The notes: generated by a model from the letters alone, not told the origin. Counted from the stretch's first letter, positions 13,806-50,715 are shown. The stretch: 64,000 bases of DNA from a virus (IMGVR_UViG_2597490202_000002:1-64000); one strand, 5' to 3'. Numbers and translations are program-made.

Positions 13806-13997
13806 TTACTGTTGTTCAATTGGTTGATTTTGTAGTTGTTCAACTGCTAATTTAATCAGTTGATTTTGTGGAATGTTTCGTTCACGGGCAAGTTGTTCAA
13901 TTAGAGCGATGGTTTCCACACTGAGTTTATATGACTTTGCTTTTACACCACGCTTTTCATCTGAGCGAGCTTTTATTTCATTGATTGACAATTTCAT
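13806..13997 (-). CDS. Small RHH-like DNA-binding protein (module A)
   Basis: RSDEKRGVKAKSYKL followed by two helices; paralogues at 48815 and 50527. Confidence 0.75.
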   Translation of the reverse strand: MKLSINEIKARSDEKRGVKAKSYKLSVETIALIEQLARERNIPQNQLIKLAVEQLQNQPIEQQ

Positions 13998-14018
13998 TAT
14001 TTTTCCCCATAATTTGAA

Positions 14019-14202
14019 GAACTAGGGAGCGGTAACTCCCTAGTAAGTTATCGGATTAGTAAACTGGCAAAGACCAGAGTAACAAAATGATAACTAGGAT
14101 AATGTATTTAAACATTTGATTATCCTCTTCAAGCGTGAGGATTAAGCCTCACACTCGCTTTCAGTCCGTGTTAAATTTCCTAGGTCTAACTACTGAAAGC
14201 GA
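14019..14202 (+). ncRNA. Putative Sib-like antisense RNA (module A); ends approximate
   Basis: TTGACA-N17-CATAAT at 13985-14013 points across the peptide ORF. Confidence 0.55.
14056..14115 (-). CDS. Ibs-like 19-aa toxin peptide MFKYIILVIILLLWSLPVY (module A)
   Basis: GAGGA RBS; length and pattern match E. coli Ibs peptides. Confidence 0.8.
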   Translation of the reverse strand: MFKYIILVIILLLWSLPVY

Positions 14203-14460
14203 TGTTATTATAATTCGGTGCACCGAATAAAACAAGTATTATTTTAGAAAAGCCTACATTTTTCGGAATGTGGGCTTTTTATTTGACAAATAAAAAACTG
14301 AGTAGTAGTATTCGTTACATAGGTGTCGAAACCTACACGGCGGTTAGTCCGCAAAACCTAAAATCCTTTGCGGTTTTTTTATATCTAAAATTTGTACTCT
14401 TTTGTTTGTTGCCAGCAAATCATAAGAGATTTAGATGTTGAAAAGGTAAAATTTATTTCA

Positions 14461-14540
14461 ATGATCGAGTGGGCGACTAATACAATACCGAAAGGGAATA
14501 CGTCCAGCCTGCCGTAGGCTTTCGAACCACTCGATCACCC
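14461..14540 (+). ncRNA. c4/CI-like antisense RNA #2
   Basis: TGATCGAGTGG..CCACTCGATCA stem. Loops GCCGT and TTTCGA are complementary to ACGG and TCGAAA in the leader and near the ant RBS. Confidence 0.8.
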
Positions 14541-14586
14541 TATTCACTAGGGTAAATCTTAATTTCGAAAATTAACGGAGTGACTT

Positions 14587-15438
14587 ATGTCAAATCAAAT
14601 CTCTACTCAAACAATCTCTTTCAACAACCAAGCCTTAATTACATTCGAGCAAAACGGTACACGTTACACTGCTATGAAGCCAATCTGTGAAAATATTGGT
14701 TTAGCGTGGGAGCCTCAATTACTCAGAATTAAGCGTGATGATATTTTAAGTTCAACTATGATCATCACGATCATAGTTGCAGAAGATGGCAAAAATCGTG
14801 AAATGGTTTGCTTGCCAATCGAATATCTCAACGGCTGGTTGTTTGGCATTGATGTAAAACGTTGCAAACCTGAAATTCGTGAAACCTTAATCAAGTATAA
14901 AAAAGAGTGCTACCAAGCCTTACACGATTACTGGTTCAATGGCAAAGCCGAACGCAAAACAACCACAGACGAACGAACAGGCTTACGACAAGCAGTCAGT
15001 GCTTTAGTCAGTAAAAAAGGTTTAATCTATTCCGATGCCTACTCACTTATTCATCAGCGTTTTAATGTTGAGCATATTGACGAGCTAACCCCTGAACAAG
15101 TGGGAATGGCTGTGGAGTATGTTCACAAAATTTATCTTGAAGGGGAGTTGATTATTGATGAGCCTAAGAAAGAAGATGAACAATTATTAAGATTACTTGT
15201 TTCAGCATACCATTTTTGCTACGAAGCCCACGAGTTACGAGAAAAGATTGTTAAAACATATATAGGCTGGGATATAGATAGACACTTTAGCCCACATTAT
15301 CTTCATAACTTAGGCATTCCACTTGAACAATTTTTAGAAAAGACAAGAGATTTCATTCACTCTAATAGCGAACGCATTATGTTTGTTAAAGGAATGAACC
15401 ATTTGCTAGAAGAACCGAAGCAAACAGCAAGATTTTAA
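14587..15438 (+). CDS. P22 Ant-N domain antirepressor
   Basis: YTAMKPICENIGLAW..Q and CLP..LNGWLFGI motifs. Confidence 0.88.
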   Translation: MSNQISTQTISFNNQALITFEQNGTRYTAMKPICENIGLAWEPQLLRIKRDDILSSTMIITIIVAEDGKNREMVCLPIEYLNGWLFGIDVKRCKPEIRETLIKYKKECYQALHDYWFNGKAERKTTTDERTGLRQAVSALVSKKGLIYSDAYSLIHQRFNVEHIDELTPEQVGMAVEYVHKIYLEGELIIDEPKKEDEQLLRLLVSAYHFCYEAHELREKIVKTYIGWDIDRHFSPHYLHNLGIPLEQFLEKTRDFIHSNSERIMFVKGMNHLLEEPKQTARF

Positions 15439-15533
15439 GCAAAAATTTAAACAAAACCGACCGCTTGCGACCTAGCGTTGCAAGTGGTTTTTGTGTTTCA
15501 AAAAAATAATGCGTTTAATCGCTCAAAAAGTGA

Positions 15534-15645
15534 TTGACATCGCGCGAGAAAAGTAGTACATTTCAGCTATGCTTGCAACTCGTACAAGCGAGAGAAAGCG
15601 AAATGATTTTGTAGCCCTGATCGGAAACGGTCGGGGCTTTTTGTT
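15534..15645 (+). promoter_or_regulatory. Late promoter PR'-like plus leader terminator
   Basis: TTGACA-N17-TACATT followed by GCCCTGATCG-GAAA-CGGTCGGGGC-T run. Confidence 0.65.
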
Positions 15646-15862
15646 TGGGGGTTAGGATGGAACAACGAGATATTCTGTTAAAAAACGGTGAAGTAGTTCA
15701 AGAAAAATCTCAATGTCACTATGCCGCTGGCTGGCCATCTCGACGTATATCAGACTGCGTTCCTCACTTCCAAAATAGGAAAATTTATCCATTTGCCGGC
15801 AATAATGACGTACCACAAGATTAAACATATCTAGTGGTGCTGAGTAAATTTGATAAAGGTTA

Positions 15863-16426
15863 TCACAATGGTAGAACTAAATATTGCGTTAAAAAATGCC
15901 GCAGAGCTTTATGGTGAAAATCGACCATTTGTCGATCCTGAAAGTGGAACTCTAACCCTAGCAGGTTGCGAAGCTCTAAGTCGTCTTGGTATTGGATTTT
16001 CCGAAAGTAGACTTGAACCTGATCTTTTAGATAAGTTGCGTAAGAATCTCGCTGCTCTTTAGTAAAACCTGTTGTGAGTTTTTCTATGAAAAAAAGGTGA
16101 AGATCCTTTTCGAGTTGAACTAAGAAGTTAAAGTTATTTGCAATTTTGGCATCTTTAAATGTGAATTCAATATAAGAGAAATGGCTATTATCATATTTTC
16201 CTATCCAGTGAGAACAACCTAGTGTGATAAAGGGGCTATCAGGCTTGTTAAGTTCAATAAGTGTGGTTTTAAGTTCTGGTAGTTGAGCAATTTCTAGGAT
16301 TTCATCTATTTTTTCAGGATGATTAACTAAATCAATTCCACCTGCATTTGGTGTTGGATTTTGGCAATCTTCAGATCCATTTGATGGTCGATATGGAAAT
16401 TTGGTATAACCTTCACGAAAGTACAT
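15863..16426 (-). CDS. Hypothetical moron protein (antisense to late operon)
   Basis: 187-aa ORF with GAGGA RBS. Confidence 0.7.
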   Translation of the reverse strand: MYFREGYTKFPYRPSNGSEDCQNPTPNAGGIDLVNHPEKIDEILEIAQLPELKTTLIELNKPDSPFITLGCSHWIGKYDNSHFSYIEFTFKDAKIANNFNFLVQLEKDLHLFFIEKLTTGFTKEQRDSYATYLKDQVQVYFRKIQYQDDLELRNLLGLEFHFQDRQMVDFHHKALRHFLTQYLVLPL

Positions 16427-16539
16427 AATTTAATCCTCTGCTAGTTTATTTGTTGGGGAACAATATTCTAGCAGTTTTTTTAACCAAGCTCAGTCTTTAC
16501 GGACTGGGCTTTTTTATTGCCTGATATGAGGGCTAAGGT

Positions 16540-16815
16540 ATGAAAAATGTTATGAGAGATATGGGAACACAGACGTATATTTGGTCTGGATTTAGTGGGA
16601 TTATTGCGTGGTTGAGTGAGCAACAGAATTTAATGATTTTAAGTCTTGCGATTGGTATTGTGACGGCGTGTGCGAACTTGTATCAACGCTGTGACGAAGG
16701 TAAGGCGAAGCGTCGTGAACGTGAGCGAGCCGAAGAAGCTCATCAAATCAGAATGCAGATTTATCGGGTAAGGGCAGAGAGGTTAAGTAATGAGCAAGCT
16801 AAAAACACTAGGTAA
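16540..16815 (+). CDS. Holin
   Basis: Hydrophobic segments, charged C-terminal tail, directly upstream of lysozyme. Confidence 0.8.
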   Translation: MKNVMRDMGTQTYIWSGFSGIIAWLSEQQNLMILSLAIGIVTACANLYQRCDEGKAKRRERERAEEAHQIRMQIYRVRAERLSNEQAKNTR

Positions 16816-17335
16816 AGTTGGCGGTGGGGTTTGTTTTGTCAGTGCCATTATTGCGGTGTTGAATACAGATTTTCACGGTCAATTTCGTACAAGTCAGCAA
16901 GGGCTTGAAATTATCGGTGATGCGGAAGGTTGTAAGCGTGAGCCTTATTTGTGTCCTGCAAATGTGCTTACCGTTGGCATTGGTTCAACGGAAGCGTCAA
17001 GCGGTAAGATTGAAAGAAAAGTTTACACGGACAAAGAGATTGCAGAGCGTTGGTTGGTTGATATTCAGCACGCAGAAAAATGCGTGAACCGTTACGCAAA
17101 TGGTGGTGATATTCCGCAATCGGTGTTTGATGTTGCTACTTCGCTGACGTTTAATGCTGGGTGTGGCACGGTGAGTAAATCGACGTTCTTTCGTAAAATC
17201 AAATCAGGCGATTATGTTGGTGCCTGTAATGAGTTGCCTAAATGGGTTTATTCAGGTGGCAAGAAGTTACGAGGGTTAGAAATCCGTCGTGAGAAAGAGA
17301 AGGCGTTATGTTTAGCTGGGTTAATAAAATCTTAA
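16790..17335 (+). CDS. Endolysin, GH24 lysozyme (SAR-type N-terminus)
   Basis: EG..PYLCPANVLTVGIG, FNAG, GL.IRR..E. Confidence 0.92.
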   Translation: MSKLKTLGKVGGGVCFVSAIIAVLNTDFHGQFRTSQQGLEIIGDAEGCKREPYLCPANVLTVGIGSTEASSGKIERKVYTDKEIAERWLVDIQHAEKCVNRYANGGDIPQSVFDVATSLTFNAGCGTVSKSTFFRKIKSGDYVGACNELPKWVYSGGKKLRGLEIRREKEKALCLAGLIKS

Positions 17336-17652
17336 TGGCACTGATTTTGGGCTTGTGTGTGTGGCTATGGGGTCAGTCACAGAGGATAGATAGCTTGAAA
17401 GCCGAGAACCAAACACAAGCCCAAACTATTGAGCAACAGCAAAAAGCAAACAATAAGCTGACAATGCAACTGCAACAAGAGCGACAAGCGGTGGAATATC
17501 AGCAAAGTATTGCAAATAAACTACGAAAGCAGGTGGAGCAGAGTAATGAACAGATTAAAGCTATTTTACAGAAAGAGCCGTGCGGCGTTACTGCTTTGCC
17601 TCGTCCTGTTGTCGATGAGCTTAAGCGGTTGCACAGCAAAGACAAAGATTGA
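17308..17652 (+). CDS. Rz-like i-spanin
   Basis: N-terminal TM plus coiled coil. Confidence 0.8.
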   Translation: MFSWVNKILMALILGLCVWLWGQSQRIDSLKAENQTQAQTIEQQQKANNKLTMQLQQERQAVEYQQSIANKLRKQVEQSNEQIKAILQKEPCGVTALPRPVVDELKRLHSKDKD

Positions 17653-17830
17653 GTATTTATATCCTCCGCAAGCCTTTTTGGTGCCGTGTGAGCGGTCAGA
17701 GTTTGGTGGCACAACCTATGGTGATGCTATCGAGTATCTCGTTAAGGTGATGGGAGAGCGTGACTTGTGTGCGGGTCAGATTGATAGCATTAGAGAGTGG
17801 CAAGCACGAACTAAGCAAGGGTTTAAATAG
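17546..17830 (+). CDS. Rz1-like o-spanin lipoprotein
   Basis: Lipobox LSGC; overlaps Rz. Confidence 0.8.
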   Translation: MNRLKLFYRKSRAALLLCLVLLSMSLSGCTAKTKIEYLYPPQAFLVPCERSEFGGTTYGDAIEYLVKVMGERDLCAGQIDSIREWQARTKQGFK

Positions 17831-18091
17831 CTGATTAACGTTTGTGTCACGGTAGAGAGCGGTCAGATGATCGCTCTTTTATTTTATGTAAATCAAATGC
17901 TACATAATTTGCGTATGGGTTTTGGGATTGTTGGATAAATCCCCGAGAAAATACGCAAGTGATGTAATTTATATATAACAAAACCCCGATCACTGCAAAT
18001 GATCGGGGTTTTTCATTACCCATTAAAGCCGAATGAGTAACGATTTATGGAGATTATGACAGTTTTAACCGTAACCATCAAGGAGATACTT

Positions 18092-18202
18092 ATGGAATAT
18101 GGTTTATGGCAAATAAGCCTTGCAGTAACACTACCTATTTTAGCGTTTGTTTCACCAAAGCTAATTAATGCCATTGCTAATTTATTGAATGTTTTGAAAT
18201 AA
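18092..18202 (+). CDS. 36-aa hydrophobic peptide, candidate type I toxin
   Basis: AAGGAG RBS; antisense promoter and bidirectional terminator in its 5' UTR. Confidence 0.6.
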   Translation: MEYGLWQISLAVTLPILAFVSPKLINAIANLLNVLK

Positions 18203-18217
18203 AAAGGATTAACCACG

Positions 18218-18670
18218 ATGACGAAGAAAGACGAGGTTAAATCCACGTCTAAAGGTCGTGGGTTAACACCTAAGCAAGAAAAATTCTGCCAGCTTTATAT
18301 TGAGCTTGGCAATGCGAGTGAGGCTTATCGGCAGGCTTACGATTGTTCAAAAATGAGTAATGAAACAATCAATACGAAAGCTAAAGAACTACTGAAGAAC
18401 GGTCCGATTACGGTCCGATTGGATGAGTTAAGAAGTTCTCATCAACAACGTCATAACATTACCGTTGATAACTTGTTAGGCAAGCTAGAGCGTATCTATA
18501 ACGAGGCGATGGAGCGTGATACCCCTCAATTCTCATCTGCGGTAAATGCAGTAATGGGACAAGCTAAACTTTTAGGCTTTGACAAACAGGTTATCGATCA
18601 TACAAGCTCTGACGGCTCACTTCGCCCTACGGTTATTGAGTTGGTAGCACCAAATGAAAATACAGCTTAA
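18218..18670 (+). CDS. terS: Terminase small subunit
   Basis: LTPKQEKFCQLYI..NASEAYRQAY. Confidence 0.92.
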   Translation: MTKKDEVKSTSKGRGLTPKQEKFCQLYIELGNASEAYRQAYDCSKMSNETINTKAKELLKNGPITVRLDELRSSHQQRHNITVDNLLGKLERIYNEAMERDTPQFSSAVNAVMGQAKLLGFDKQVIDHTSSDGSLRPTVIELVAPNENTA

Positions 18671-19871: not shown

Positions 19872-19876
19872 GTGAT

Positions 19877-28663: not shown

Positions 28664-29154
28664 CAACAACCCACGATGATATTTATAGAGAAGTCCGAGC
28701 TTATTTGCTTGGGCTTTTTTCTTTAGAAGGCGAGAGGGTGATAAGAGATTATAGCAATAATGTGCCTCTGCCGCACTCGCCTTTTATTTTGATGAACATC
28801 ATTTACGAGCAATCGTTATCTACCAATGTTCACTCCTATGATGTTGAAAACGCATTAGCTTCTGTTATGCAAAGTGTAGAAGTGCAAATGCAAATAGATT
28901 TCTATGGGGAAACAAGCGGTCAAATGGCGAGGATTTTTTGCAATTTATGGCGAGATTATCACGCTTGCGACAGGTTGGAAAAATGCCAGCCTCTTTATTG
29001 CGATGAACCACGCTATTTACCTTTTACTAACGAGGCGAGCGAGTATGAAGAAAGATATACAGTAACCGCAAGGCTTGCTTATAACCCTGTTGTTGTACAC
29101 GCTCAAGATTTTATTACTAAACCAAACCCAAGCATTGAGCTTGGAAAACTATAA
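28648..29154 (+). CDS. Tail terminator / neck protein
   Basis: QIDFYG, PLYCD, YEER motifs; precedes the sheath gene. Confidence 0.7.
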   Translation: MAADITTTHDDIYREVRAYLLGLFSLEGERVIRDYSNNVPLPHSPFILMNIIYEQSLSTNVHSYDVENALASVMQSVEVQMQIDFYGETSGQMARIFCNLWRDYHACDRLEKCQPLYCDEPRYLPFTNEASEYEERYTVTARLAYNPVVVHAQDFITKPNPSIELGKL

Positions 29155-29163
29155 GGAAAAACT

Positions 29164-30642
29164 ATGTTTCAATCGATTCCAGCAAGTCAGATTGTGAATG
29201 TGAATCCGTCCGTATTGAGTTCTGGCGGCTCCCCACTTTCGATGAATGCCGTTTTCTTAAGTGAAAATGCGAATTTACCGACAGGTCGAGCGGTTTCATT
29301 TGCAACGGCGGATTCTGTAGGTGAATATTTCGGGTTTACTTCTGCGGAATATCAAGCGGCGGCAGTTTATTTTAAAGGGTTTGATGGTTCAACCATTAAA
29401 CCTGGTACGTTAATTTTCTTTGCTTACAATAAAGCAATAGAAGGTGCATTCTTATTAGGTGCTTCTGTTAAATCATTATCGTTAAATGAACTCAAGAAAA
29501 TTAACGGAACACTCAGTGTAATTATTGACGGCAGTGAGAAAAAAGCAGATTCATTGAATTTAAGTGGTGCAAAAAGTTTCTCTAATGCAGCTGAGTTAAT
29601 TGGTACGGCGTTAGGCTCTGTAACAGTGACTTTTGATAGTCAATTACAAGCATTCAAGGTTGCTTCTTCAACGACTGGCACAACATCAACGATTGCGTTT
29701 GCAACAGGTGCAACTGCAGATGCTTTAGGGTTAAGTGAAAATGCAGGTGCTACGCTTTCACAAGGCTCAAATACAACTACTCCGACAGAAACCATGCAAG
29801 CCGTGATTGGTTCAACGCTTAACTGGGCAACATTTACCACAATCACAGAGCCGACATTAGAGGAAAAATTAGAGTTTGCAAAATGGTCTAACAATCAGAA
29901 TCAACGCTTCTTGTATGTTGGTTGGGGTAAAGAGGCTACTGCAACACAAACAGGCAATACAACAAGTTTTGGCGCGAAATTAAAAGAGTCTGAATATAGC
30001 GGTGCAACGGCTGTATATGGTGGTTTAGATAAAGCGGCATTCTTGTGTGGTACTGTGGCTTCAATTGATTTTACCGAGAAACAAGGGCGTATTACGCTTA
30101 AGTTTAAAGGTCAATCAGGATTAACCGCTGATGTTACCGATGCCACAATTGCTAAGAATTTAGAAGATAATGGCTATAACTATTACGGTGCTTGGGCAAC
30201 GGCTAATGACCGCTTCTTGTTCCTATCTCCAGGTCAGATTTCTGGGGAATGGAAATGGATCGACGCTTACATTAACCAAATCCGCTTAAATAGCCAGCTC
30301 CAGTTAGCGATTATTACATTGCTAACCAGTGCAAAATCAGTCCCTTACAATGATATTGGTATTGCGTTGCAACGTGCAGCGTGTAATGACCCAATTAATG
30401 AGGCATTGAACTTTGGTTCTATTCAAGTGGGTGTTTCGTTGAGCGAACAACAAAAAGCAATCATCAATAACTACACGGGTGTTGATGCTGCTTCACAAGT
30501 AGAGGCCCAAGGCTATTATCTTTACATTGGTAAAGCGACAGCACAAACACGAGGAAACCGTGAATCATTCCCGATGAAGCTATTCTATACGGATGGCGGT
30601 AGTTTACATTCCGTAAATCTTGCTTCTATCAACGTTCAATAA
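29164..30642 (+). CDS. Tail sheath (DUF3383)
   Basis: SIPASQIVNVNP, NWATF, GYNYYG, YTDGG. Confidence 0.88.
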   Translation: MFQSIPASQIVNVNPSVLSSGGSPLSMNAVFLSENANLPTGRAVSFATADSVGEYFGFTSAEYQAAAVYFKGFDGSTIKPGTLIFFAYNKAIEGAFLLGASVKSLSLNELKKINGTLSVIIDGSEKKADSLNLSGAKSFSNAAELIGTALGSVTVTFDSQLQAFKVASSTTGTTSTIAFATGATADALGLSENAGATLSQGSNTTTPTETMQAVIGSTLNWATFTTITEPTLEEKLEFAKWSNNQNQRFLYVGWGKEATATQTGNTTSFGAKLKESEYSGATAVYGGLDKAAFLCGTVASIDFTEKQGRITLKFKGQSGLTADVTDATIAKNLEDNGYNYYGAWATANDRFLFLSPGQISGEWKWIDAYINQIRLNSQLQLAIITLLTSAKSVPYNDIGIALQRAACNDPINEALNFGSIQVGVSLSEQQKAIINNYTGVDAASQVEAQGYYLYIGKATAQTRGNRESFPMKLFYTDGGSLHSVNLASINVQ

Positions 30643-30709
30643 TGTAATTTAATCCATAAGGCGACTTATATTTCAAGCAAATCGCCTTTTTCTTTTTGGA
30701 GAAAAAATA

Positions 30710-31153
30710 ATGCAAACAAATACCTCAAGAACAATTACCTCGGCAAATGCGGTGCTTTTAGCAAAAGCCGTTGGATATAGCCGTGGTTTCGTTCAGATTG
30801 AACAGTATGCGGCAGATAACGCATTTACGTTTAACCAAACGGCGGTAACAGAAACCACAATGGGCGTAGATGGCTATCAGTCTGGTGGTTGGGTTCCTAG
30901 CGAAACCGATTTCAATATTGCACTTGCGGCAAATAGTCCGAGCCGTTCATTTTTCGATGGCGTAAAAGTACATATGCAAAACCAACAGGAGACCGTGCCT
31001 TTTGAGTTTGATGTTACGATTCCGTCAATTGGCAAACGATACACTGCTACAGGTTTTATGACTCAAGCCCAAAGCGGTACCAGCGCTAAAAAAGTCTTAG
31101 ATTCTGCAACGTACAATTTCAAGATTGTGGTGAAAACAGAAGAAGATATTTAA
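30710..31153 (+). CDS. Tail tube protein
   Basis: TITSAN, MGVDG, LAANSPS; follows the sheath gene. Confidence 0.8.
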   Translation: MQTNTSRTITSANAVLLAKAVGYSRGFVQIEQYAADNAFTFNQTAVTETTMGVDGYQSGGWVPSETDFNIALAANSPSRSFFDGVKVHMQNQQETVPFEFDVTIPSIGKRYTATGFMTQAQSGTSAKKVLDSATYNFKIVVKTEEDI

Positions 31154-31273
31154 CCGACTGACTAAAGTCGGTTTTTTATTGCTTACAAGATAGAAAAGTA
31201 CATTCGAAAGCGGTGTTTACTCTCTCGCTCACCGTTTCTTGTAAGCATCTTAAAAGCGAGATTTAGAACCAAT

Positions 31274-31690
31274 ATGGAGAGAGAAAATGGCGTTAAAAAC
31301 AAAAAAATCACAATTGAAAAAGGGCGTGATGCAGGTATTACATTCAAAATTACCGAAATGCCTATTGCGAAAGCGGACAAATGGGCGACAAAAGCCTTAC
31401 TCGCTTTAATGAGTGGAGGCTTTCAAGTGCCAAATGCAAAAGAGGGTATGCTTGGTATTGCTAGAGTGGCTTTATCGGCATTAAGAGAAATCCCAGAAGA
31501 AAAGGCGTTGCCGTTACTTGATGAGCTAATGGACTGTGTGGAAATCGTCACCGAAAGCGGTGCGACTCGTGCACTCGATTTGTCGCTTGGCGATGTACAA
31601 GACATTACGACTTTATGGCTATTACGCAAAGAGGCGTTATCTCTCCATATTGATTTTTTGGAGCAAGAGCCTACCCCGATCTCGGAGTAG
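31274..31690 (+). CDS. Tail assembly chaperone G
   Basis: GRD.G.TF.ITEM motif; lies between tube and tape measure. Confidence 0.8.
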   Translation: MERENGVKNKKITIEKGRDAGITFKITEMPIAKADKWATKALLALMSGGFQVPNAKEGMLGIARVALSALREIPEEKALPLLDELMDCVEIVTESGATRALDLSLGDVQDITTLWLLRKEALSLHIDFLEQEPTPISE

Positions 31691-31869
31691 GCAAAGGTGG
31701 TGATGCAGTCGAATATGTGAATCTAAGTCAAGTTGTGGGTGCGGTGGTGAGTAGCAAATTAGCCACTTACCACGAATTACAAACCGTTTACGGCTTAGAG
31801 GATGCTTTAGATCTGCTCGAAGTATTTACCGTAGATTCATACAACAACAGGAAGGCAAATAATGGCTGA
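31654..31869 (+). CDS. Chaperone GT extension via -1 frameshift
   Basis: Slippery T TTT TTG at 31654-31660; the -1 frame is open to TGA 31869 and encodes ATYHELQTVYGLEDALDLLEV. Confidence 0.75.
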   Translation, partial: FFGARAYPDLGVGKGGDAVEYVNLSQVVGAVVSSKLATYHELQTVYGLEDALDLLEVFTVDSYNNRKANNG

Positions 31870-34366
31870 TGTAATTGATACGCTTGCGATAGATATTGTT
31901 GCTAATGATAGCTTTACTGCGGTAGCAAAACCATTTCTCGCTTTGTTAGAGCGGATGGAGCAGGAACTTGATAGCAATGCAAAAGCTCTGGATGAAGCAA
32001 ATAAAAGCGTAGAAGGGCTATCTACAACCGTTGCTGAATTAAACGATGCCACAAGCGAAGTCTCAAAATCTCAGGATAAGCATACAAAAGCGCTAGAGAA
32101 AAACGAAAAACAATCCAAGAAAAACGAGAAAGCCGCTAAGAATCTTCTTGATGGTGTTCTTGGGTTTGGCAAGGCTCTTGGCGCTATCAGCACAATGATT
32201 ATGGCTGGGATTGGGCTTGATCGTTTAGTTAAGCAAACTTCTCAAGCTAATCAAGAACTCGATTCAATGGCAAAAAACATTGGAATGAGTAGCCGTTCTC
32301 TCGCCTCTTGGCAAGGTGCTGCGGAAGCAATGGGCGGAAGTGCTAGCGGTATGGCTAACACGTTGATGGGGCTATCTGGTGCTTTAACTCGCTTTCAGGT
32401 AATGGGCGATGCTTCTGTTATTCCATTTTTTAATGCGTTAGGAGTCGCGCCTTTAGATGCTATGGGCAATATCCGAAAACTTGAAGAGATTATGCTAGAG
32501 TTGGCGGATAAGTTCAGCAAAATGGATCGTGGCACAGCGCTTGTTATGGCGCAAGGGTTAGGCATTGATGAAGAAACGTTTAACACGCTTGCACAAGGCA
32601 AAGAAGCCTATCAAGAGATGCTTGCTTATCAGAGTAAAATCTACAAATCCAACCAAGACGATATTGAAACCTCTAAGAAGCTGAATAAATCCGTCTCAAT
32701 GCTAAATCAGCAATTTGACGGACTAAAACTGATGATTGCAAATGCGGCGGCTCCAGCCTTATTAACCATTAGCGAATTAACCACAAAATTCTTTGAGTTT
32801 TTAAGCCGAAATGAAAACCTTGTGAAAGGCGTATTTATGGGAATAGCTGGTGCAATGACAGCAGTTCTCATTCCTACATTGCTTTCAGGTGCAAAAGCCG
32901 CTTTAGCGTTTATGGCTCCGTTTTTACCTGCAATTCTACTTGTAGCTGCTTTGGCTGGTGTTTTCGGATTGCTCTATGATGACTATAAAAAATGGGCAGA
33001 GGGTGGTAATTCCCTGTTTAACTGGGGGGCTTTTATTAAGTGGTTTGATAAAGCTAATTTTTCCGTTCGCAGTTTAGTAGATGGTTTCACTTATTTATTA
33101 ACAGAATATGAAGATTGGAATGCTTTAGCTGAAGATGGTAAGTCTTGGTTAAAACTTAAAGGTTTTATTGATGAAAACGGTTTATCCGTTGGCTCGTTAG
33201 CAACAGGATTTAAAAACCTAGGGAAAGACATTGTTGAGTATCTAATGCCTGTATTTGATCGCCTTTTAGGGATTTTGTACAAAATCATTACGCTTGACTT
33301 AGAAGGTGCTTGGGAGGAAGTAAAGAGCCTAGGTAGTGATAGCGTAGATTGGGTAACTCAAAAAACGAAAGATGCTTGGGGAAGTATTCAAAACTGGTGG
33401 AATGGCGTGGAAGAGCGAGCTCCAGAAGCTTTTGATAAAGCCGCTCAAATTCAATCTAGTGATGAAGCCTCATTAACTCAACAAAGTAAAAATGCTGGGT
33501 TTGTTGATACTAAGAAAGGATTTAGCAAAGGAAACTTTGTCTTTGAAGGGCAGAAATCAGCTAAGGGGCTAACACAAGAAGAAACAGGAGCGTTAGCTGC
33601 TCAAATGGTCAAGCGTGAAAGCGGTGGAAACCTTAGAGCAGAAAATCAATATGGATATTTGGGATTATATCAGTTCGGTGCGGCAGCATTAGTTGATGCG
33701 GGGTTAATCGATGATGCTAAATATAGAGCAGCAGTAAGAAAATATGGTAAAGGGTTATCGAATGGCTCTGATGCTGATGTTCACAAGGCATTTTTAGCGG
33801 ATTCAAGTAACTGGACCATCAAAGGTGGTCGAGAGGCATTTTTGAGTAGTAAAGCCATTCAAGATAATGCAATCGTAGCTCTTATGAATAAGAATGTGGG
33901 GTATTTAGGCTCTACTTATCAAGGTTCAGCAGAACATAAAGTTGGCTTATTGATGGCAGCTCACTTAAAAGGAGCAGGCGGAGCGAAAGCCTTCGCAAAC
34001 TCTGGTATAGATAGTACAGATGGTAATGGAACAAAAATATCTGATTACTATAATACAGGTCAAAAGGCGATTCAGTTAGCCAAACAACAAGGAAAATCAA
34101 ACCAAAGCAAACCTATAGATTGGAATACGCCTGTTGGCGGATATATGGTAGCAACAGCCTTAAATGCAACACAACAAGCAAGACAGACTATGCAAAATCT
34201 TGCTCAACCTCAAAACATCAACAGTAATCAACGTACAGAAGTTGTAATCAACGGTGGAGTTAATGTACACTCTAGTGCATCAACGATAACAGGGACTACT
34301 CAAGATGCCGTTAATGGTCTTAAAACGAGTATGTCGGGATTACAATTCAATACGGGATTAGTGTGA
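31862..34366 (+). CDS. Tape measure protein with a lysozyme-like/transglycosylase domain
   Basis: Long helical Ala-rich protein; RESGGN..GLYQFG. Confidence 0.88.
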   Translation: MADVIDTLAIDIVANDSFTAVAKPFLALLERMEQELDSNAKALDEANKSVEGLSTTVAELNDATSEVSKSQDKHTKALEKNEKQSKKNEKAAKNLLDGVLGFGKALGAISTMIMAGIGLDRLVKQTSQANQELDSMAKNIGMSSRSLASWQGAAEAMGGSASGMANTLMGLSGALTRFQVMGDASVIPFFNALGVAPLDAMGNIRKLEEIMLELADKFSKMDRGTALVMAQGLGIDEETFNTLAQGKEAYQEMLAYQSKIYKSNQDDIETSKKLNKSVSMLNQQFDGLKLMIANAAAPALLTISELTTKFFEFLSRNENLVKGVFMGIAGAMTAVLIPTLLSGAKAALAFMAPFLPAILLVAALAGVFGLLYDDYKKWAEGGNSLFNWGAFIKWFDKANFSVRSLVDGFTYLLTEYEDWNALAEDGKSWLKLKGFIDENGLSVGSLATGFKNLGKDIVEYLMPVFDRLLGILYKIITLDLEGAWEEVKSLGSDSVDWVTQKTKDAWGSIQNWWNGVEERAPEAFDKAAQIQSSDEASLTQQSKNAGFVDTKKGFSKGNFVFEGQKSAKGLTQEETGALAAQMVKRESGGNLRAENQYGYLGLYQFGAAALVDAGLIDDAKYRAAVRKYGKGLSNGSDADVHKAFLADSSNWTIKGGREAFLSSKAIQDNAIVALMNKNVGYLGSTYQGSAEHKVGLLMAAHLKGAGGAKAFANSGIDSTDGNGTKISDYYNTGQKAIQLAKQQGKSNQSKPIDWNTPVGGYMVATALNATQQARQTMQNLAQPQNINSNQRTEVVINGGVNVHSSASTITGTTQDAVNGLKTSMSGLQFNTGLV

Positions 34367-42178: not shown

Positions 42179-42187
42179 GAGAATACA

Positions 42188-44192: not shown

Positions 44193-44242
44193 TTGGTTTT
44201 CTCCATAAAATAAAACCGCCCATAAAGAGCGGTTGGTTGTGG

Positions 44243-44447
44243 TTAAAAGTTTGCTAATCGTTGTTGATTAAGCTGGGGTAGGGCTTGCTCAATGAATGGG
44301 TCAAGCCATACGTTAAATTCGTGTGCGATGTCGTAGCCCTTGGCGACAATCTCGTTTTTCAGAGCCACTAACAATATGAAGATCCGTTAGAGAATAAAGA
44401 TTTTCGTAAGTACGAATAGATGTTTTTAGAATGGTTAAGTTTGACAT
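44243..44447 (-). pseudogene. Internally deleted antirepressor (KilA-N-like start plus the C-terminus shared with 1187-1789)
   Basis: MSNLTILKTSIR..YSLTDLH is joined out of frame to YDIAHEFNVWLDPFIEQ..QQRLANF. Confidence 0.75.
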
Positions 44448-44493
44448 ATTATGCCCCTTGATTTTCAGTTAGTCTTTCGATCAACCTTAGTAG

Positions 44494-44577
44494 GGTTGAT
44501 CGGGCTTCAACTACCAAATCAAGCTGGCGGAGCTTATTTCCCGAAGGTATTTTATTAGGCTCTCTCGACCCGACCAC
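44494..44577 (-). ncRNA. c4/CI-like antisense RNA #3
   Basis: Loop CTTGATTT is complementary to AAATCAAG in the leader and at the RBS. Confidence 0.8.
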
Positions 44578-44708
44578 TGAAATCCTCAGATCTGAGGAAT
44601 TACAAATTTTAGGCATAAAAAAACCGCTTTTATTGTCGGAGCGAGAAACCGACTTGATTTAGTAGTGCGGTTATCTTAATCCGAAAGGGCGGTTTTTGTC
44701 AATAGGAT

Positions 44709-45989: not shown

Positions 45990-46109
45990 TTCATATTTCC
46001 CTGAAATTCAGATACAAAAAAAGCCGTTGGTGGACGGCTTGGATTGGGATAATGTTAAGCTGAATTGGGGGCGGTGTCAATATGGAATAAAAAAGCCTAC
46101 GAGGTAGGC

Positions 46110-46532
46110 TTATTCATTCTCTTGTTGTTGCTTTTCTAAAACACTTGCTTTGCCTCGTCCAAATCCTGCCCAGTAACCAGCAAGTAATGCACCACCGATT
46201 TTTAGCATTTCTAATGCAAAATCTGTTTTATCTGTGTACATTGCAATAACCACAATAATTGTGATAACAACAACACCTACACCAATTAAGATATGGCGTT
46301 GTGAATGAAGTTTAGAAACTGCAGTAATTTGTTGAGTGCGATCGCCTTTTTGAGCTTCAATACTTGCGAGTGCAATTTTCTCATTAGATTCAATGCGTTT
46401 CCGTTCAAGCTCTAATTCCTTTTCTTTTACAGCCTGATTCGCTTGTTGAACCTTCACAAGATCTCGCATTGTAGCAAGAAGTTGTGCGTCCGTTGGTTGT
46501 GGGTTTTTATTATTCATTAACGTACTGGACAA
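46110..46532 (-). CDS. Hypothetical 2-TM protein
   Basis: Coiled coil plus two hydrophobic helices. Confidence 0.7.
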   Translation of the reverse strand: MSSTLMNNKNPQPTDAQLLATMRDLVKVQQANQAVKEKELELERKRIESNEKIALASIEAQKGDRTQQITAVSKLHSQRHILIGVGVVVITIIVVIAMYTDKTDFALEMLKIGGALLAGYWAGFGRGKASVLEKQQQENE

Positions 46533-46711
46533 AGCTGTGGCGTTTTATAAGTGATTTGGAATGAACCATAACCACCAGAGCCAATTTTAGGTGGAACAAA
46601 AGTAACATTCTGGATGTTGTTACTTACTGTGGATTTTCTCGCTTCGTTTAAGTACTGTTTCGCTGAAACGTTGCGAACCTTTTTAGGTACAAGCAGTGGC
46701 GTTTTAGTCAT
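46517..46711 (-). CDS. Small hypothetical protein
   Basis: AAGG RBS; FVPPKIG..GYGSF. Confidence 0.65.
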   Translation of the reverse strand: MTKTPLLVPKKVRNVSAKQYLNEARKSTVSNNIQNVTFVPPKIGSGGYGSFQITYKTPQLCPVR

Positions 46712-46876
46712 ATGAAATACCTTGTTTGAGTGATGAAAATCCCTTGTGAAATAAGGATTTTATATAAAAAAACACATTGAGGTGGTTGTAAACTTTCTGT
46801 TGAAAGCACGGCTATCTTAATCCGAAGGGGGGCGGTTGTCAAATACAAAAGCCTGCGGAAATAGCAAGCTTTGTGG

Positions 46877-47443
46877 TTATTGTTTGGGTTTATCTTCGTC
46901 AATCCATTTTTCTGCAAGCCATTCAAACTCACAAAACAGTTTATTGTTGTTATTTTTAATACGACGCAATTCCATAATATAGGGTTTCAACGTATTCCAG
47001 TCAGTGATTACGCTACTTTTACTCATTCGTTTATAAACGGCTTCATCAAATAAATTCTCTTTGATGCCAACACAAATAAATTCAATCGAGTTGAGAATAT
47101 CAAGTACGATGAAATTTTGTCGATTTGTTTCATCTGTTGCTTCTGCATGTTTTTCGAGGGAGCAAGCTAAGCTCGTGAAGTTTAGCCCCCCATCACGCAT
47201 TTTCATATAAGATTTTCGGCGTTTGCGGTAATAGGCATTATTGCTATTGCTGATAAGTAATTCGATAGTTGCTTTTTGTTTGTGCTGTTTTCGTAATTCT
47301 TTCAGTTGTGACCACGCAAAATAGGCTAGGTAACCTGTGAATAAACAAGTTCCTAGCCCTACAAGCAGATTAATATCAAAGTTAAAGTTACTAAAATATA
47401 CCAGCATTTCATTGGTGGTAGGTTGAGGCATTAAACTTCCCAT
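46877..47443 (-). CDS. DUF4760-like membrane-anchored protein
   Basis: N-terminal TM; LN..EFI..GI....DE..YK..FE.LA.KW. Confidence 0.7.
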   Translation of the reverse strand: MGSLMPQPTTNEMLVYFSNFNFDINLLVGLGTCLFTGYLAYFAWSQLKELRKQHKQKATIELLISNSNNAYYRKRRKSYMKMRDGGLNFTSLACSLEKHAEATDETNRQNFIVLDILNSIEFICVGIKENLFDEAVYKRMSKSSVITDWNTLKPYIMELRRIKNNNNKLFCEFEWLAEKWIDEDKPKQ

Positions 47444-47627
47444 CCTTCATTTAGTGAAAAACCGTCCCAACCTTCGTTAATTGATTTAGACATTTCATTA
47501 CTCCTAATTTAAAACTAAAATACACAAAAAAAGCCTGCAAATGCAAGCCCTGTCACGTTCCGTATTTTAAAAAAGCACTTTCTGTTGAAAGTGGGGGTAT
47601 CTTAAATTAAAGGGCGGTGGGTGTCAA

Positions 47628-48425
47628 TTAGATTTTATTCATCGAACCATTGAGTTTCAGAATTTTATAAATAACAGGCTCTTCTTCGATATATTCAACC
47701 AATACATCCACCAAGAAGATTTTGTGATAAGGGTATTCTTCGTTGATGATCATGGTGTCTTTAAGTGATTTATCTTCAAATCGCACTCTTACTGGCTTTG
47801 ATGAAATCGCAGGGATAATGGCTCTGTCGTGAGCTTTGCTTTGAGCGTCTGCGGTGGACGACCAATAAAGCGTGGTGTTTCGTAAGGTATTTTCTTCACG
47901 CTCTTTGAGGAGTTTCAATTCTCGGTTAATGTTATTTTGAGCTAGCCCTGCCATTGCATTGTCGGCGTGTAGATGAATATGCACATCGCCTTGATTATTC
48001 GATACTTGTAGATTGAATTGTGCTTTGGGGTCGATAGCGATAGGTTCTAAAATATTATTGGCATTTTTTAACATTGCCGGTGTAAGTCGTTCAGGCTTTT
48101 CGCCTTTATTCATTGCCCAGTCTAAAATCATTTTGAGATGTCCTCCAAATTCGAGAATGGCATTACCCTGTTCAATTATCGGGTAGGTGCTTGAAACCAG
48201 TGCGGCAAGCTCAACAAGGAAACAGCCTTGTGTGATTTTTTCCACATAAATATGCTGTTCGCAAGGCTCAATTTCAATTTTGTTGTCTTGGATAAATTGG
48301 CGGTATTCTGCAGCTATCCCTTCCATACTTTGGCAAAAGGTAGAGAGTTGTAGCGGTTCACTGTTATCAATTTCGATGAGTAGTTTCATATTTTTGTCTA
48401 TTGTGTAATGTGTTTCAGCTACCAT
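47628..48425 (-). CDS. Hypothetical accessory protein
   Basis: Long ORF with GAGG RBS and its own promoter. Confidence 0.75.
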   Translation of the reverse strand: MVAETHYTIDKNMKLLIEIDNSEPLQLSTFCQSMEGIAAEYRQFIQDNKIEIEPCEQHIYVEKITQGCFLVELAALVSSTYPIIEQGNAILEFGGHLKMILDWAMNKGEKPERLTPAMLKNANNILEPIAIDPKAQFNLQVSNNQGDVHIHLHADNAMAGLAQNNINRELKLLKEREENTLRNTTLYWSSTADAQSKAHDRAIIPAISSKPVRVRFEDKSLKDTMIINEEYPYHKIFLVDVLVEYIEEEPVIYKILKLNGSMNKI

Positions 48426-48655
48426 ACCGCACCTCAAATTTTGGATACAAAAAAAGCCGTGTTAGACGGCTTAGATTGAGATAATGTTAAACTGAAAGGG
48501 CGGTGGGTGTCAAATACAAAAACATTAATTATTTTAGTTTAACCTTAAAAATATCTTGATTATTTATTTGGTTTAACCTAAAATATGCTTGTTTTCGGAA
48601 TGGTTCTGAAAATGAGAAGCCCAGCTTTCACTGGGCCACTAAATGGAGCTAGGAT

Positions 48656-48727
48656 ATGAAGATTTTCAGAGTTCTAATCCTAGTTACCGTAGTATTACTC
48701 ACCTGTTGTTCAGGTACGGTAGTTTAA
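48656..48727 (+). CDS. Ibs-like 23-aa peptide MKIFRVLILVTVVLLTCCSGTVV (module B)
   Basis: GGAG/AGGA RBS; shares the ATCCTAGTTA core with modules A and C. Confidence 0.65.
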   Translation: MKIFRVLILVTVVLLTCCSGTVV

Positions 48728-48814
48728 GGTAACTCCTGAAGGGGGAAGGTCGGATGTCCCCCTGACGGCTCCAACTATAAGCCTTTTGGCTTAAAAGATC
48801 AACAAGGAATTTCT

Positions 48815-49033
48815 ATGCAAACTGAAAAACGCTCTCGTGGTCGCCCAAAATCTGGTTTAACTCTTCAGGAACTGCAAGCAAGAAGCGAAGCTAAGCGTGG
48901 GGTTAAGCTCAAAGGCTTTAAACTTCATCAAGAAACGATTGAGCTTATTGAACGCCTTGCCGAGCAACACGGTATTTCACAAACACAGGTGATTGTGCAA
49001 GCGGTTGAGTTATTTAATCAGAAAGGGGCGTAA
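48815..49033 (+). CDS. RHH-like protein with AT-hook-like GRP motif (module B)
   Basis: RGRPK; RSEAKRGVKLKGFKL. Confidence 0.75.
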   Translation: MQTEKRSRGRPKSGLTLQELQARSEAKRGVKLKGFKLHQETIELIERLAEQHGISQTQVIVQAVELFNQKGA

Positions 49034-49176
49034 TGCCCTTTATTCTTTCATTAGCGCCATCCAAAATAGAGTTTTCCCTAGTTTTTGTTTGACTACACTT
49101 AATTTCAGGTTGATGATGCTGAGAATTAAGCATAAACACGTTAATGAAATCAACCAGCTCATCTGCCTAGTCCCCA

Positions 49177-49440
49177 TTAAAAATTAAACCCCTGCCCGTG
49201 TGTTACGACCTTTTCGATTTCTTCGTAGCGGCGGACGTTAAATTTCTCAAACTCTAATACTTTGACTAGGCTTTCTGCTTTAGCCTTGAGTTGTTCGAGT
49301 TCTTGCTGTTGTTTGAAATTCTGTGCGACAAGTTCTGAAATGTGTTCGTTTGCTCGAATAACGGCAAGGGCTTGCCGTGAGCAGAGTGTTATATAATAGT
49401 TTAACTGCTTACGCAGTTTGAAAGGATTGAGGGTTTTCAT
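49177..49440 (-). CDS. Hypothetical phage protein
   Basis: ORF in the leftward operon. Confidence 0.6.
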   Translation of the reverse strand: MKTLNPFKLRKQLNYYITLCSRQALAVIRANEHISELVAQNFKQQQELEQLKAKAESLVKVLEFEKFNVRRYEEIEKVVTHGQGFNF

Positions 49441-49463
49441 AGTGGTTCCTTTGGTCAATCGAG

Positions 49464-50183
49464 TTAGTTAAGAATTCTACTTTGAGCAACTTCGATCAGT
49501 AGTTTGTATTCGTGATGGGTCTTGTCATCGTGGACTTCTTTTGATTTTGATAAAAACTCGTCCACCGTGCCTGTAAAGCAACCACGAGTAACAATTAACC
49601 CAAATTTTCCATTAAAGACCGTAAGCGTTCCATTTTCTGAGCCTACATTACTTGCCCAAAAAATCATTTTGCGTTCAGAGATAACTGCAAAAGATCTCAC
49701 CCGAGCATCACCGAACACCCGAGCGATATCGTACACCCGAGCATCACCGCACACCCCAGCGTTACCGTACACGCAAGCGTCACCGTACACCCGAGCATCA
49801 CCGAACACCCAAGCGTTACCGAACACCCAAGCCTTACCGTACACCCCAGCGTTACCGTACACGCAAGCGTTACCGAACACCCAAGCCTTACCGTACACCC
49901 GAGCATTACCGTACACCCGAGCATTACCGTACACCCAAGCATTATCGTACACCCCAGCGTTACCGTACACGCAAGCGTCACCGCACACCCGAGCATTATC
50001 GTACACCCAAGCATTACCGCTATGATCTAAATTCTTTTCGGTTTCGATATAACCGCCTAATTGGCCTGCTCCAACTAAACCAAATGTAATAAGTGCTTTA
50101 ATTCGATAGAGCGTTCTGCCTAAATGTTCTACTGTGTCATCTTTGAGTAGTTCGTATTTCTTTTGTGTAGTTTGTTCTGTCAT
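49464..50183 (-). CDS. Hexapeptide-repeat (left-handed beta-helix) phage protein
   Basis: LYRI.AL..FG.V..G..GG.I N-terminus, 18 GNAxVY-type repeats, V.RGCF.G C-terminus. Confidence 0.88.
   Translation of the reverse strand: MTEQTTQKKYELLKDDTVEHLGRTLYRIKALITFGLVGAGQLGGYIETEKNLDHSGNAWVYDNARVCGDACVYGNAGVYDNAWVYGNARVYGNARVYGKAWVFGNACVYGNAGVYGKAWVFGNAWVFGDARVYGDACVYGNAGVCGDARVYDIARVFGDARVRSFAVISERKMIFWASNVGSENGTLTVFNGKFGLIVTRGCFTGTVDEFLSKSKEVHDDKTHHEYKLLIEVAQSRILN
49695..50018. repeat. 18 x 18-bp coding tandem repeat
   Basis: Units such as CCGTACACCCGAGCATTA. Confidence 0.9.
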
Positions 50184-50221
50184 TTTTAATTTCCTTGCAA
50201 TAAAAAACCGCCTGTATTGCT

Positions 50222-50253
50222 ACAAGCGGTTGGTTTTCGTGAAAATGTTGCAA
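50222..50253 (+). other. Actinobacillus-type DNA uptake signal sequence (example)
   Basis: ACAAGCGGT core with downstream T-tract and TTGCAA; others near 52381-52414, 54537 and 58950-58985. Confidence 0.75.
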
Positions 50254-50402
50254 TAAAAAAGCCACCGTAAAAACGATGGCTTTTCTTAAAACTTCTTGAG
50301 TTTGTCAGTACACTAATCTATAATGCACTTGTTTTCAGCAATGGTGCTGAAAACGAGCTGGGTCCGACCTTAAATCTAACCCAACTTTTGGAGGGATAAC
50401 AT

Positions 50403-50462
50403 ATGCTTTACCGCATTATCCTAGTTATCATTCTCTTAGTAATTAGCTTGCCGGCTTACTAA
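50403..50462 (+). CDS. Ibs-like 19-aa toxin peptide MLYRIILVIILLVISLPAY (module C)
   Basis: GGAGG RBS; very close to the E. coli Ibs pattern. Confidence 0.85.
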   Translation: MLYRIILVIILLVISLPAY

Positions 50463-50526
50463 GTTGAATGAACTAAGCAGGGGGAGAAATCTCCCTGCTC
50501 TTCAAAACTGATATTAAGGATTTATT

Positions 50527-50715
50527 ATGGCATTGTCAAGAAGTGAGATTGTGGCTCGCAGTGATGCAAAAAAGGGGATGCAAGCCAAAACCTATAAACT
50601 TCCGCAAGCGTTGGTGGCTGAAATTGAGTTGTTAGCCAAACAGTGCGGTATCTCTCAAGGATTGTTAATTGCTCAAGCCGTTGAGCTGTTTAAGCAATCG
50701 CAGAAAGGGGCGTAA
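50527..50715 (+). CDS. RHH-like protein (module C)
   Basis: RSDAKKGMQAKTYKL. Confidence 0.75.
   Translation: MALSRSEIVARSDAKKGMQAKTYKLPQALVAEIELLAKQCGISQGLLIAQAVELFKQSQKGA

Follow-up and report, generated by a model that had tools for sequence, protein, structure and literature searches.

In IMGVR_UViG_2597490202_000002:1-64000, the initial 64 kb of an 85-kb provirus record (the whole of this stretch is hereafter the window), we analyzed three short cassettes (A, B, and C), each of which combines a gene for an Ibs-type hydrophobic peptide, a convergent promoter predicted to drive a Sib-type antisense RNA, and a gene for a ribbon-helix-helix (RHH) protein. Sequence comparison makes it probable that these modules are prophage-borne Ibs/Sib type I toxin-antitoxin cassettes extended by an autorepressor. 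Cassette anatomy, homology, linkage, and the association between operator and RHH type are shown here. What appears to be new is an Ibs/Sib type I system with a cassette-encoded RHH gene, predicted to be co-transcribed with the toxin, and a matching candidate operator.

Architecture of the three cassettes

An initial annotation of this DNA had proposed three loci of one layout, inserted against the surrounding phage operon; all three were recovered at the same positions with that layout and, judging from the strands of the neighboring genes, in that orientation. Module A (13806-14235, minus strand) is flanked by a Q-like antiterminator gene and the Ant gene, both on the plus strand, and modules B (48534-49041) and C (50296-50715) lie on the plus strand within a minus-strand operon with RecT-like and exonuclease genes. 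In each cassette, a sigma-70-like promoter with a palindrome in its 17-bp spacer is followed by a leader with two hairpins, a ribosome-binding site (RBS) and a hydrophobic open reading frame (ORF) of 19-23 amino acids (aa), a GC-rich hairpin, and an ORF of 62-72 aa. The whole module is colinear in a five-way alignment of the three window cassettes with two Mannheimia phages; because of this colinearity, and because the layout recurs in dozens of loci, it is not a chance arrangement.

A neutral promoter scan returned the previously annotated antisense promoters at identical coordinates in all three modules, together with the sense promoters of B and C, the -35 box of the A sense promoter (TTGTTT) being too weak for the scan. 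The annotated overlap of the antisense -35 box with Leu-Ser codons of the RHH gene in A and C also held, at codons 3-4. A scan of the three modules found no terminator-like site between peptide and RHH gene and no usable separate RHH promoter, consistently with the co-transcription that had been claimed. The features are as follows (Shine-Dalgarno sequence, SD).

14207..14235, minus: A sense (ibs-type) promoter, TTGTTT-17-TATAAT (sequence reading)
14213-14228, minus: A perfect 16-bp palindrome ATTCGGTGCACCGAAT in the promoter spacer, presumed RHH-A operator
14135..14201, minus: A 5' leader with two hairpins upstream of the SD, at 14201..14156 (10-bp stem) and 14152..14135
14056..14115 (codons 14115..14059), minus: A Ibs-like peptide ORF MFKYIILVIILLLWSLPVY, 19 aa and stop
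13985..14130, plus: A predicted Sib-like antisense RNA gene (extent of the Rfam SIB_RNA match, which does not fix the 3' end)
13985-14013, plus: A antisense promoter, TTGACA-17-CATAAT (neutral scan, 11/12)
14022-14043, plus: A antisense 5' GC stem-loop
13806..13997 (codons 13997..13809), minus: A RHH gene, 63 aa and stop (phrog_3887, E 4.9e-28)
48556-48584, plus: B sense promoter, TTGATT-17-TAAAAT (neutral scan)
48534-48547 and 48568-48581, plus: B operator word (A/G)GTTTAACCT, two copies
48656..48727 (codons 48656-48724), plus: B hydrophobic peptide ORF, 23 aa and stop
48610..48802, minus: B presumed antisense RNA unit (predicted)
48802..48774, minus: B antisense promoter, TTGATC-17-TATAGT (neutral scan, 9/12)
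About 48762..48741 and 48637..48618, minus: B antisense GC hairpin and terminator-like hairpin, respectively
48815..49033, plus: B RHH gene, 72 aa and stop, with an N-terminal RGRPK extension (phrog_3887, E 3.6e-30)
49023-49041, plus: B terminator-like hairpin overlapping the RHH stop
50256..50285, unstranded: hairpin immediately upstream of C, flanked on each side by T/A runs (sequence reading)
50296-50324, plus: C sense promoter, TTGAGT-17-TATAAT (neutral scan)
50305-50316, plus: C presumed operator TCAGTACACTAA
50403..50462 (codons 50403-50459), plus: C Ibs-like peptide ORF MLYRIILVIILLVISLPAY, 19 aa and stop
50388..50539, minus: C predicted Sib-like antisense RNA gene (extent of the Rfam SIB_RNA match)
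50539..50511, minus: C antisense promoter, TTGACA-17-TAATAT (neutral scan, 10/12)
50498..50477, minus: C antisense GC stem-loop
50527..50715 (codons 50527-50712), plus: C RHH gene, 62 aa and stop (phrog_3887, E 4e-27)

Read on the opposite strand, the leader hairpins of A lie at the 3' part of the presumed antisense RNA. The second operator word of B (48534-48547) lies 34 bp upstream, and the same word pair occurs in B-type relatives, while the palindrome of C differs by one mismatch from the TTAGTacACTAA of its closest relatives. The hairpin at 50256-50285 is a possible distal terminator of the C antisense RNA and insulator from the phage operon. B and C have an identical 25-nt 3' end (49020-49044 and 50702-50726), consisting of the last RHH codons, the stop, and a hairpin, which may be a cassette boundary for recombination.

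A fourth cassette, D, lies beyond the window on the minus strand (L057 703-1180, about 66.2-66.7 kb in the record). It has the layout of A-C with a different RHH: its peptide has 20 aa (MKTYQIIIFLILIVLSSSAY), its RHH protein has 72 aa and belongs to a second family described below, and an 11-bp inverted repeat flanks its -35 box. D and module A adjoin a common downstream sequence, which suggests that two related lambdoid prophages are present in the record.

Homology of the peptide and the predicted antisense RNA to Ibs/Sib

At permissive thresholds, Rfam SIB_RNA (RF00113) was the best match of regions A and C, on the antisense strand and over positions 1-147 of 147, scoring 30.7 bits for A (E 3.9e-4) and 44.5 bits for C (E 7e-7) with a gathering score of 56. 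Module B gave no SIB_RNA match at these thresholds; B-type relatives are matched by a custom RNA model (R1) to whose construction B-type sequences contributed. In the SIB_RNA alignment, the elements in common with the E. coli family are the promoter hexamers (included in the Rfam model), the 5' GC stem-loop, the stretch complementary to the C-terminal codons and stop, and a hairpin formed from the complement of the RBS (SD) and codons 5-7. Pfam Ibs_toxin (PF13956) matched the C peptide with 15.5 bits (cut-off 27) and the peptides of two relatives with E 0.013 and 0.049, and gave no match for the peptides of A, B, and D.

Across 77 distinct 19-codon ORFs, the second codon position was the most constrained (entropies 1.23, 0.54, and 1.50 for the three positions), and 61% of single-base codon differences were synonymous, against 26% expected. 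The consensus C-terminus of 69 distinct peptides is S-x-P-A-Y, from which B (23 aa) deviates. Judged from this substitution pattern, the peptide ORF is a real gene under protein-level selection.

Downstream of the peptide, an antisense promoter matching at least 9/12 positions was present in 83 of 111 distinct loci and in 9 of 111 shuffled controls, and in all 3 modules the convergent promoter-like sites are placed so that a transcript would cover the peptide ORF and its RBS. Folding of module A gave z-scores relative to shuffles of -5.2 on the antisense and -6.3 on the sense strand, with the RBS paired to early codons in the sense fold. By eye, the antisense stem sequences differ among relatives yet pairing is kept. 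RNAalifold on a MAFFT alignment of 26 antisense sequences predicted 4 pairs; the GC stem-loop was misaligned there, and for this reason we make no formal covariation claim for it.

By homology, modules A and C are divergent relatives of the Ibs/Sib type I toxin-antitoxin systems and B is a more distant copy. The earlier designation as type I and Ibs-like is thus backed by SIB_RNA as the top match on the antisense strand of A and C and by a weak Ibs_toxin match of C, both below the curated cut-offs. The Ibs/Sib core itself is not new in Pasteurellales, because homologues were reported in 2010, in passages that list a single one for a strain of Haemophilus influenzae and seven for H. somnus (Fozo 2010, PMC2887945).

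The downstream protein

The A, B, and C proteins match phrog_3887 ('transcriptional regulator') over their full length (E-values listed above), and a profile from 17 relatives matches CopG-family structures (E 2e-4 and 1.2e-3). In the AlphaFold model of the module A protein (pLDDT, the model's confidence score, 88.9), an extra helix (5-16) precedes an extended segment (17-26) and two helices (27-40 and 44-56). The top Foldseek rows were CopG, with target-normalised TM 0.82-0.86 and rmsd 0.8-1.0 Å over 38-41 columns, a length at which the E-values are not significant, followed by Arc and by RHH antitoxins (CopA_SO, MazE, and AtaR). Weak matches were also obtained to PHROG 'Arc-like repressor' families and, in NCBIfam, to the YbfE-type 'LexA regulated protein' and to 'replication regulatory protein RepA' (E 0.0043); PADLOC gave no match for the four RHH proteins. 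Pfam RHH_1 (PF01402) scored 20.4 bits for A, 16.0 for B, and 15.6 for C (cut-off 20.5). The profile and model results together identify the downstream proteins as RHH proteins of CopG/Arc-like fold, in line with the initial annotation, with the correction that the family had already been annotated, both as phrog_3887 and by NCBI under the name 'ribbon-helix-helix protein, CopG family'. With 294 of 5.8 billion clusters at E <= 1e-3, the family is small, and the sources of its best 120 of 294 clusters, where named, are almost all Pasteurellaceae, plus Moraxella and one Neisseria.

A second RHH family, whose members start MAN..TEHS, occupies the same position behind the peptide. One member (L070) reaches Pfam RHH_1 with 21.3 bits (cut-off 20.5), and hhalign gave a probability of 55% for family 1 versus family 2, with a common helix-strand-helix-helix order; the two families appear to be at most distantly related.

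We consider it very improbable that the RHH protein acts on the antisense (Sib) promoter, or as a protein antitoxin, and not on the toxin promoter. The family-1 antisense -35 box, lying within RHH codons 3-4, is physically entangled with the RHH gene, which would suit the first of these ideas; against it, no palindrome was noticed by eye in the antisense promoters of A or C, and the family-2 antisense promoter lies upstream of the RHH start. As for the second, a 19-aa membrane peptide is an unlikely RHH partner, and no protein toxin gene adjoins the modules, the peptide and RHH ORFs being the only ones between the flanking hairpins.

Linkage of RHH genes to Ibs/Sib units

A hydrophobic ORF of 18-23 aa was found 58-104 nt upstream of the RHH gene in 50 of 50 loci (14 genome and 36 IMG/VR loci), so that the co-occurrence of RHH family and Ibs-like ORFs, proposed as a check at the outset, was complete. 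With the three window cassettes and the two Mannheimia phages, these loci represent 44 distinct module sequences. At two identical loci, L196 and L197, which encode a more distant RHH without the N-terminal helix, no hydrophobic ORF lies upstream; linkage to the peptide is therefore a property of this family itself and does not extend to every RHH relative. GenBank entries for Mannheimia phages PHL101 and 587AP2 annotate the RHH gene alone and so miss the toxin half.

We also took a census starting from the RNA, with a covariance model that spanned the antisense region but excluded the RHH start, applied to 151 Pasteurellaceae species genomes, 61 of which had a match. Of 130 rows, 121 were examined, with 7 repeat copies from a single genome and the 2 weakest matches set aside. 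The Sib-like unit was followed by RHH family 1 at 70 loci, by RHH family 2 at 17, and by neither at 34, which makes 87/121 loci RHH-linked; at least one RHH-linked locus was present in 41 genomes, and 20 had stand-alone loci only. Among the RHH-less loci are copies adjoining tRNA genes, units in tandem arrays, and loci whose RHH gene is visibly decayed. The RHH-linked form occurs in Moraxella too.

These counts bear on a rival explanation in which the RHH protein is the real product, a phage regulator with targets elsewhere, tuned by the short ORF and the antisense RNA, the peptide being a leader and not a toxin. Production of the RHH protein from the long transcript only, and the position of the modules at regulatory hot spots, adjoining Q and inside the early-left operon, speak in its favor, as does the dual control of a downstream gene by RHH protein and antisense RNA known in plasmid copy control. 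We nevertheless hold it to be unlikely, given that conservation of the peptide is at the protein level and keeps the Ibs pattern, that the RNA is homologous to Sib, and that 34/121 loci keep the peptide and antisense unit without any RHH gene. Nor do the operator words of A and C have a second copy in the window, where the palindrome core of A is unique at up to 2 mismatches.

Several individual loci from these searches deserve description. One Pasteurellaceae genome (G035) gave 11 matches, about nine of them copies of one RHH-linked cassette on different contigs and two of another type; the three copies compared were identical (loci L181-L183 and L185 examined), which suggests that this cassette rides on a multi-copy element. 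At G048:C5:3397-4202 (L121, L143, L134), three RHH-less Sib-like units stand in tandem, about 335 nt apart, an arrangement of repeats similar to that of the E. coli sib loci. In a Moraxella sp., two units about 900 bp apart (L081 and L075) form a tandem pair in which a gene for a small helical protein (67 aa, no Pfam RHH match) belongs to the downstream unit only; both promoters have the same inverted repeat around the -35 box, and one protein might control both units. Two cassettes (L106 and L105, in G110 and G150) retain a remnant of the A-type operator: the RHH frame of L106 leaves the family after 'MSINEI', and L105 has no downstream ORF of at least 40 aa. For L106 this suggests decay of the RHH gene, with the toxin-antitoxin unit left standing alone.

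Promoter palindromes as candidate operators

Among related cassettes, those with the same RHH type carry the same palindrome and those with other RHH types carry other palindromes, examples by RHH type being TCGGT-NN-ACCGA, TTAGT-AC-ACTAA, GTTGG-N4-CCAAC, TGTAGG-N4-CCTACA, GTATGT-AA-ACATAC, and paired GTTTAACC words. At least 8 operator classes were seen, differing in the register of the palindrome center, and in 45 tabulated modules they corresponded one to one with RHH classes, exchange of the middle segment notwithstanding.

An inverted repeat within the promoter spacer (arms of at least 5) was present in 41/62 distinct family-1-linked promoters (66%; shuffles 14%) and in 3/22 RHH-less promoters (14%; shuffles 7.5%), with a Mann-Whitney p = 3.4e-5 that is to be read in the knowledge that this measure was chosen after the result of a broader one. 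With the middle segment controlled for, operator distance correlated with RHH distance (partial Mantel r = 0.24, p = 2e-4; 45 distinct modules). Two mosaics illustrate this: between C and phage 587AP2 the middles differ by 12%, the RHHs by 53%, and the operators by 59%, and between L034 and L010/L035 the middles differ by 34-35% with an identical RHH and an identical operator. The palindrome thus appears to follow the RHH type and not the toxin core. The autorepressor proposed in the initial annotation gains comparative support from the enrichment of spacer palindromes in RHH-linked promoters and from their tracking of RHH type in recombinants.

The same holds for the idea of module-specific palindromes in orthogonal copies: the four modules A-D have four different operators, and identity among their antisense regions is 49-65%, the longest runs in common being 7-19 nt, a combination that fits independent operation of the four cassettes.

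Alternatively, the type I pair and the RHH gene could be independent neighbors traveling as one recombination unit, with palindromes that are relics or are bound by another factor. Operator distance does follow middle-segment distance (partial r = 0.46), roughly one in three family-1 promoters shows no clear repeat, and modules recombine freely, all as independent neighbors would predict; such neighbors would sit uneasily with a repeat enriched only where an RHH gene follows, with the one-to-one match of operator and RHH classes across exchanged middles, and with two at most distantly related RHH families in the same position. We therefore regard this alternative as quite unlikely.

Transcript data

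RNA-seq data came from four of 24 listed runs, belonging to three studies, as assembled contigs and so with no strand, ends, or level. In one run (X3), contig depth was about 29,000-32,000 over 50248-50415, 5,805 over 50416-50667, and 92 upstream; it was 15,013 at 50300, inside the C sense promoter, and other module copies in the strain add to these depths. As a hint, the depth fits an abundant C antisense RNA ending at the 50256-50285 hairpin. Contig breaks at 50673-50702 were considered as transcript ends and rejected, as they coincide with the 25-nt stretch common to B and C.

Proposed mechanism

In the cassette model that we favor, the sigma-70 promoter would give a single mRNA with a structured leader, the gene for the 19-23 aa Ibs-type peptide and, about 60-90 nt further on, the RHH gene. 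A strong convergent promoter at or just before the RHH start codon would produce a Sib-type antisense RNA covering the peptide ORF and its RBS and not the RHH RBS, because this RNA would start about 20 nt before the RHH start codon; it would block translation of the peptide and leave the RHH RBS free. An RHH dimer or higher form would bind the spacer palindrome of the toxin promoter and repress transcription of both the toxin and its own gene, which would place the toxin under two layers of control, autorepressor and antisense RNA. Distinct RHH-operator pairs and diverged RNAs would allow several cassettes to coexist in one cell without cross-talk. As the cassettes face phage operons, read-through would add antitoxin-sense RNA and not toxin mRNA. 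Transcripts, peptide toxicity, DNA binding, and a role in prophage stabilisation or defence are inferred.

In E. coli, according to two reviews, the ibs mRNA spans the entire Sib RNA (PMC8594479), and Sib RNAs block translation, the duplex being processed by RNase III (PMC4147584). Salmonella IbsA is reported in a preprint to inhibit the F0F1 ATP synthase.

More tentatively, and with fairly low confidence, we consider that the cassette may be a self-contained three-component addiction or defence switch with stackable independent specificities. Since the RHH gene would be transcribed only through a firing Sib promoter, the two promoters and the repressor would form a feedback circuit, in which loss of transcription or of the prophage, or phage shut-off of host transcription, would tip the balance toward toxin synthesis. 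RHH genes would have been recruited to the position behind the peptide at least twice, and the RHH-operator pairs and RNAs would have diversified into many mutually blind specificities, so that a cell could stack several independent copies.

A number of observations weigh against the autorepressor-extended cassette. No curated Ibs/Sib threshold was reached (Rfam 44.5 and 30.7 against 56, none for B; Pfam 15.5 against 27), and Pfam RHH_1 falls just below its cut-off for A and lower for B and C. The transcript data are strand-blind contigs, the cassette region being present in RNA libraries of three studies. The RHH gene seems dispensable for the toxin-antitoxin core, because 34/121 loci persist without it. 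As regards the operator, 21/62 family-1 promoters have no in-spacer repeat of 5 bp, and family-2 repeats are long and lie around the -35 box, with an in-spacer repeat in 4/16. The broad measure that came first (longest inverted repeat in the 45-nt promoter region, loops up to 12) separated RHH-linked from RHH-less loci weakly (means 6.0 vs 5.6, p = 0.029), because upstream terminator hairpins fell within the 45-nt region, and the in-spacer measure was chosen with this result known. Because operator distance also tracks middle-segment distance, shared descent explains part of the operator signal, and recombinational replacement of cassettes without functional coupling could produce mosaics too.

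Other features of the window

Two further Rfam matches and a tRNA gene were recorded. sRNA-Xcc1 matches at 14463-14544 (plus; 57.4, gathering 53), between module A and the Ant gene, and C4 antisense RNA, an immunity RNA of the P1/P7 type, matches at 1842-1934 (minus; 53.5, gathering 45). The tRNA gene lies within the prophage region at 57578-57651 (minus; Rfam 72.9 bits).

Comparison with known systems

In plasmid copy control (pMV158 CopG/RNAII; R1 CopB/CopA), a small RHH autorepressor acts at the promoter of its own operon and one cistron of that operon's mRNA is the target of a convergent antisense RNA, the controlled gene being the replication initiator, behind the repressor gene. In both sequence and fold, the RHH proteins described here match CopG best. 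Unlike in the plasmids, the gene controlled in the cassettes would be a predicted membrane toxin and stands ahead of the repressor gene. In the immI region of P22 (Arc, Pant, sar RNA), an Arc-type RHH protein binds an operator in its own promoter and a small convergent antisense RNA lies inside the unit; the repressor gene comes first and the controlled product is the antirepressor. Arc is among the fold matches of our proteins, and the PHROG 'Arc-like repressor' families match them weakly, whereas the RNAs have no sequence relation.

Type II toxin-antitoxin systems with RHH antitoxins (CopA_SO, MazE, AtaR) share with the present cassettes the RHH protein autorepressing the toxin operon promoter, predicted in our case; the cassettes differ in having no protein toxin partner, and neutralisation would be by RNA. 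A protein repressor at a type I toxin promoter combined with an RNA antitoxin is known for tisB, symE, and dinQ under LexA, and the protein regulator of type I toxins, where one is known, is a host factor such as LexA. Whereas LexA is a global host repressor encoded elsewhere, the presumed repressor here is cassette-encoded, cassette-specific, and carried on the toxin mRNA.

A close relative is E. coli ibs/sib (RF00113, PF13956), with which the cassettes have in common the 19-aa hydrophobic peptide, the antisense RNA over ORF and RBS from a near-consensus promoter at the same relative position, the 5' GC stem-loop, and the SD/early-codon hairpin. Passages of the reviews PMC4147584 and PMC8594479 describe the E. 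coli layout as found here. The present scores nonetheless lie below both curated cut-offs, and where the E. coli loci are chromosomal tandem repeats, the cassettes are prophage-borne, single-copy, and set against the operon; their toxin mRNA carries a downstream RHH gene and their promoter a palindrome. Term searches within PMC4147584, PMC8594479, and PMC2887945 returned no mention of a protein partner of ibs/sib in the text they covered. We did not find a link of RHH proteins to ibs/sib described in the literature, supplements (e.g. Tables S5/S6 and Figure S3 of PMC2887945) being outside the search; term searches of the accessible text of PMC2887945, PMC8594479, PMC5367252, PMC4553209, PMC11264685, and PMC4147584 gave none. 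The novelty claimed in the initial annotation therefore stands for the RHH link and not for the occurrence of Ibs homologues in Pasteurellales, already published in the passages of PMC2887945 cited above.

The commonest Ibs/Sib form in Pasteurellaceae, at 87/121 loci examined, thus carries a specific presumed repressor on the toxin mRNA. Should this repression be confirmed, type I control would gain a protein layer, and the cassettes would constitute a natural collection of small, mutually orthogonal pairs of repressor and operator, with an antisense RNA to match each pair. They would also offer a compact system in which to ask why prophages of animal-associated bacteria keep several such cassettes.

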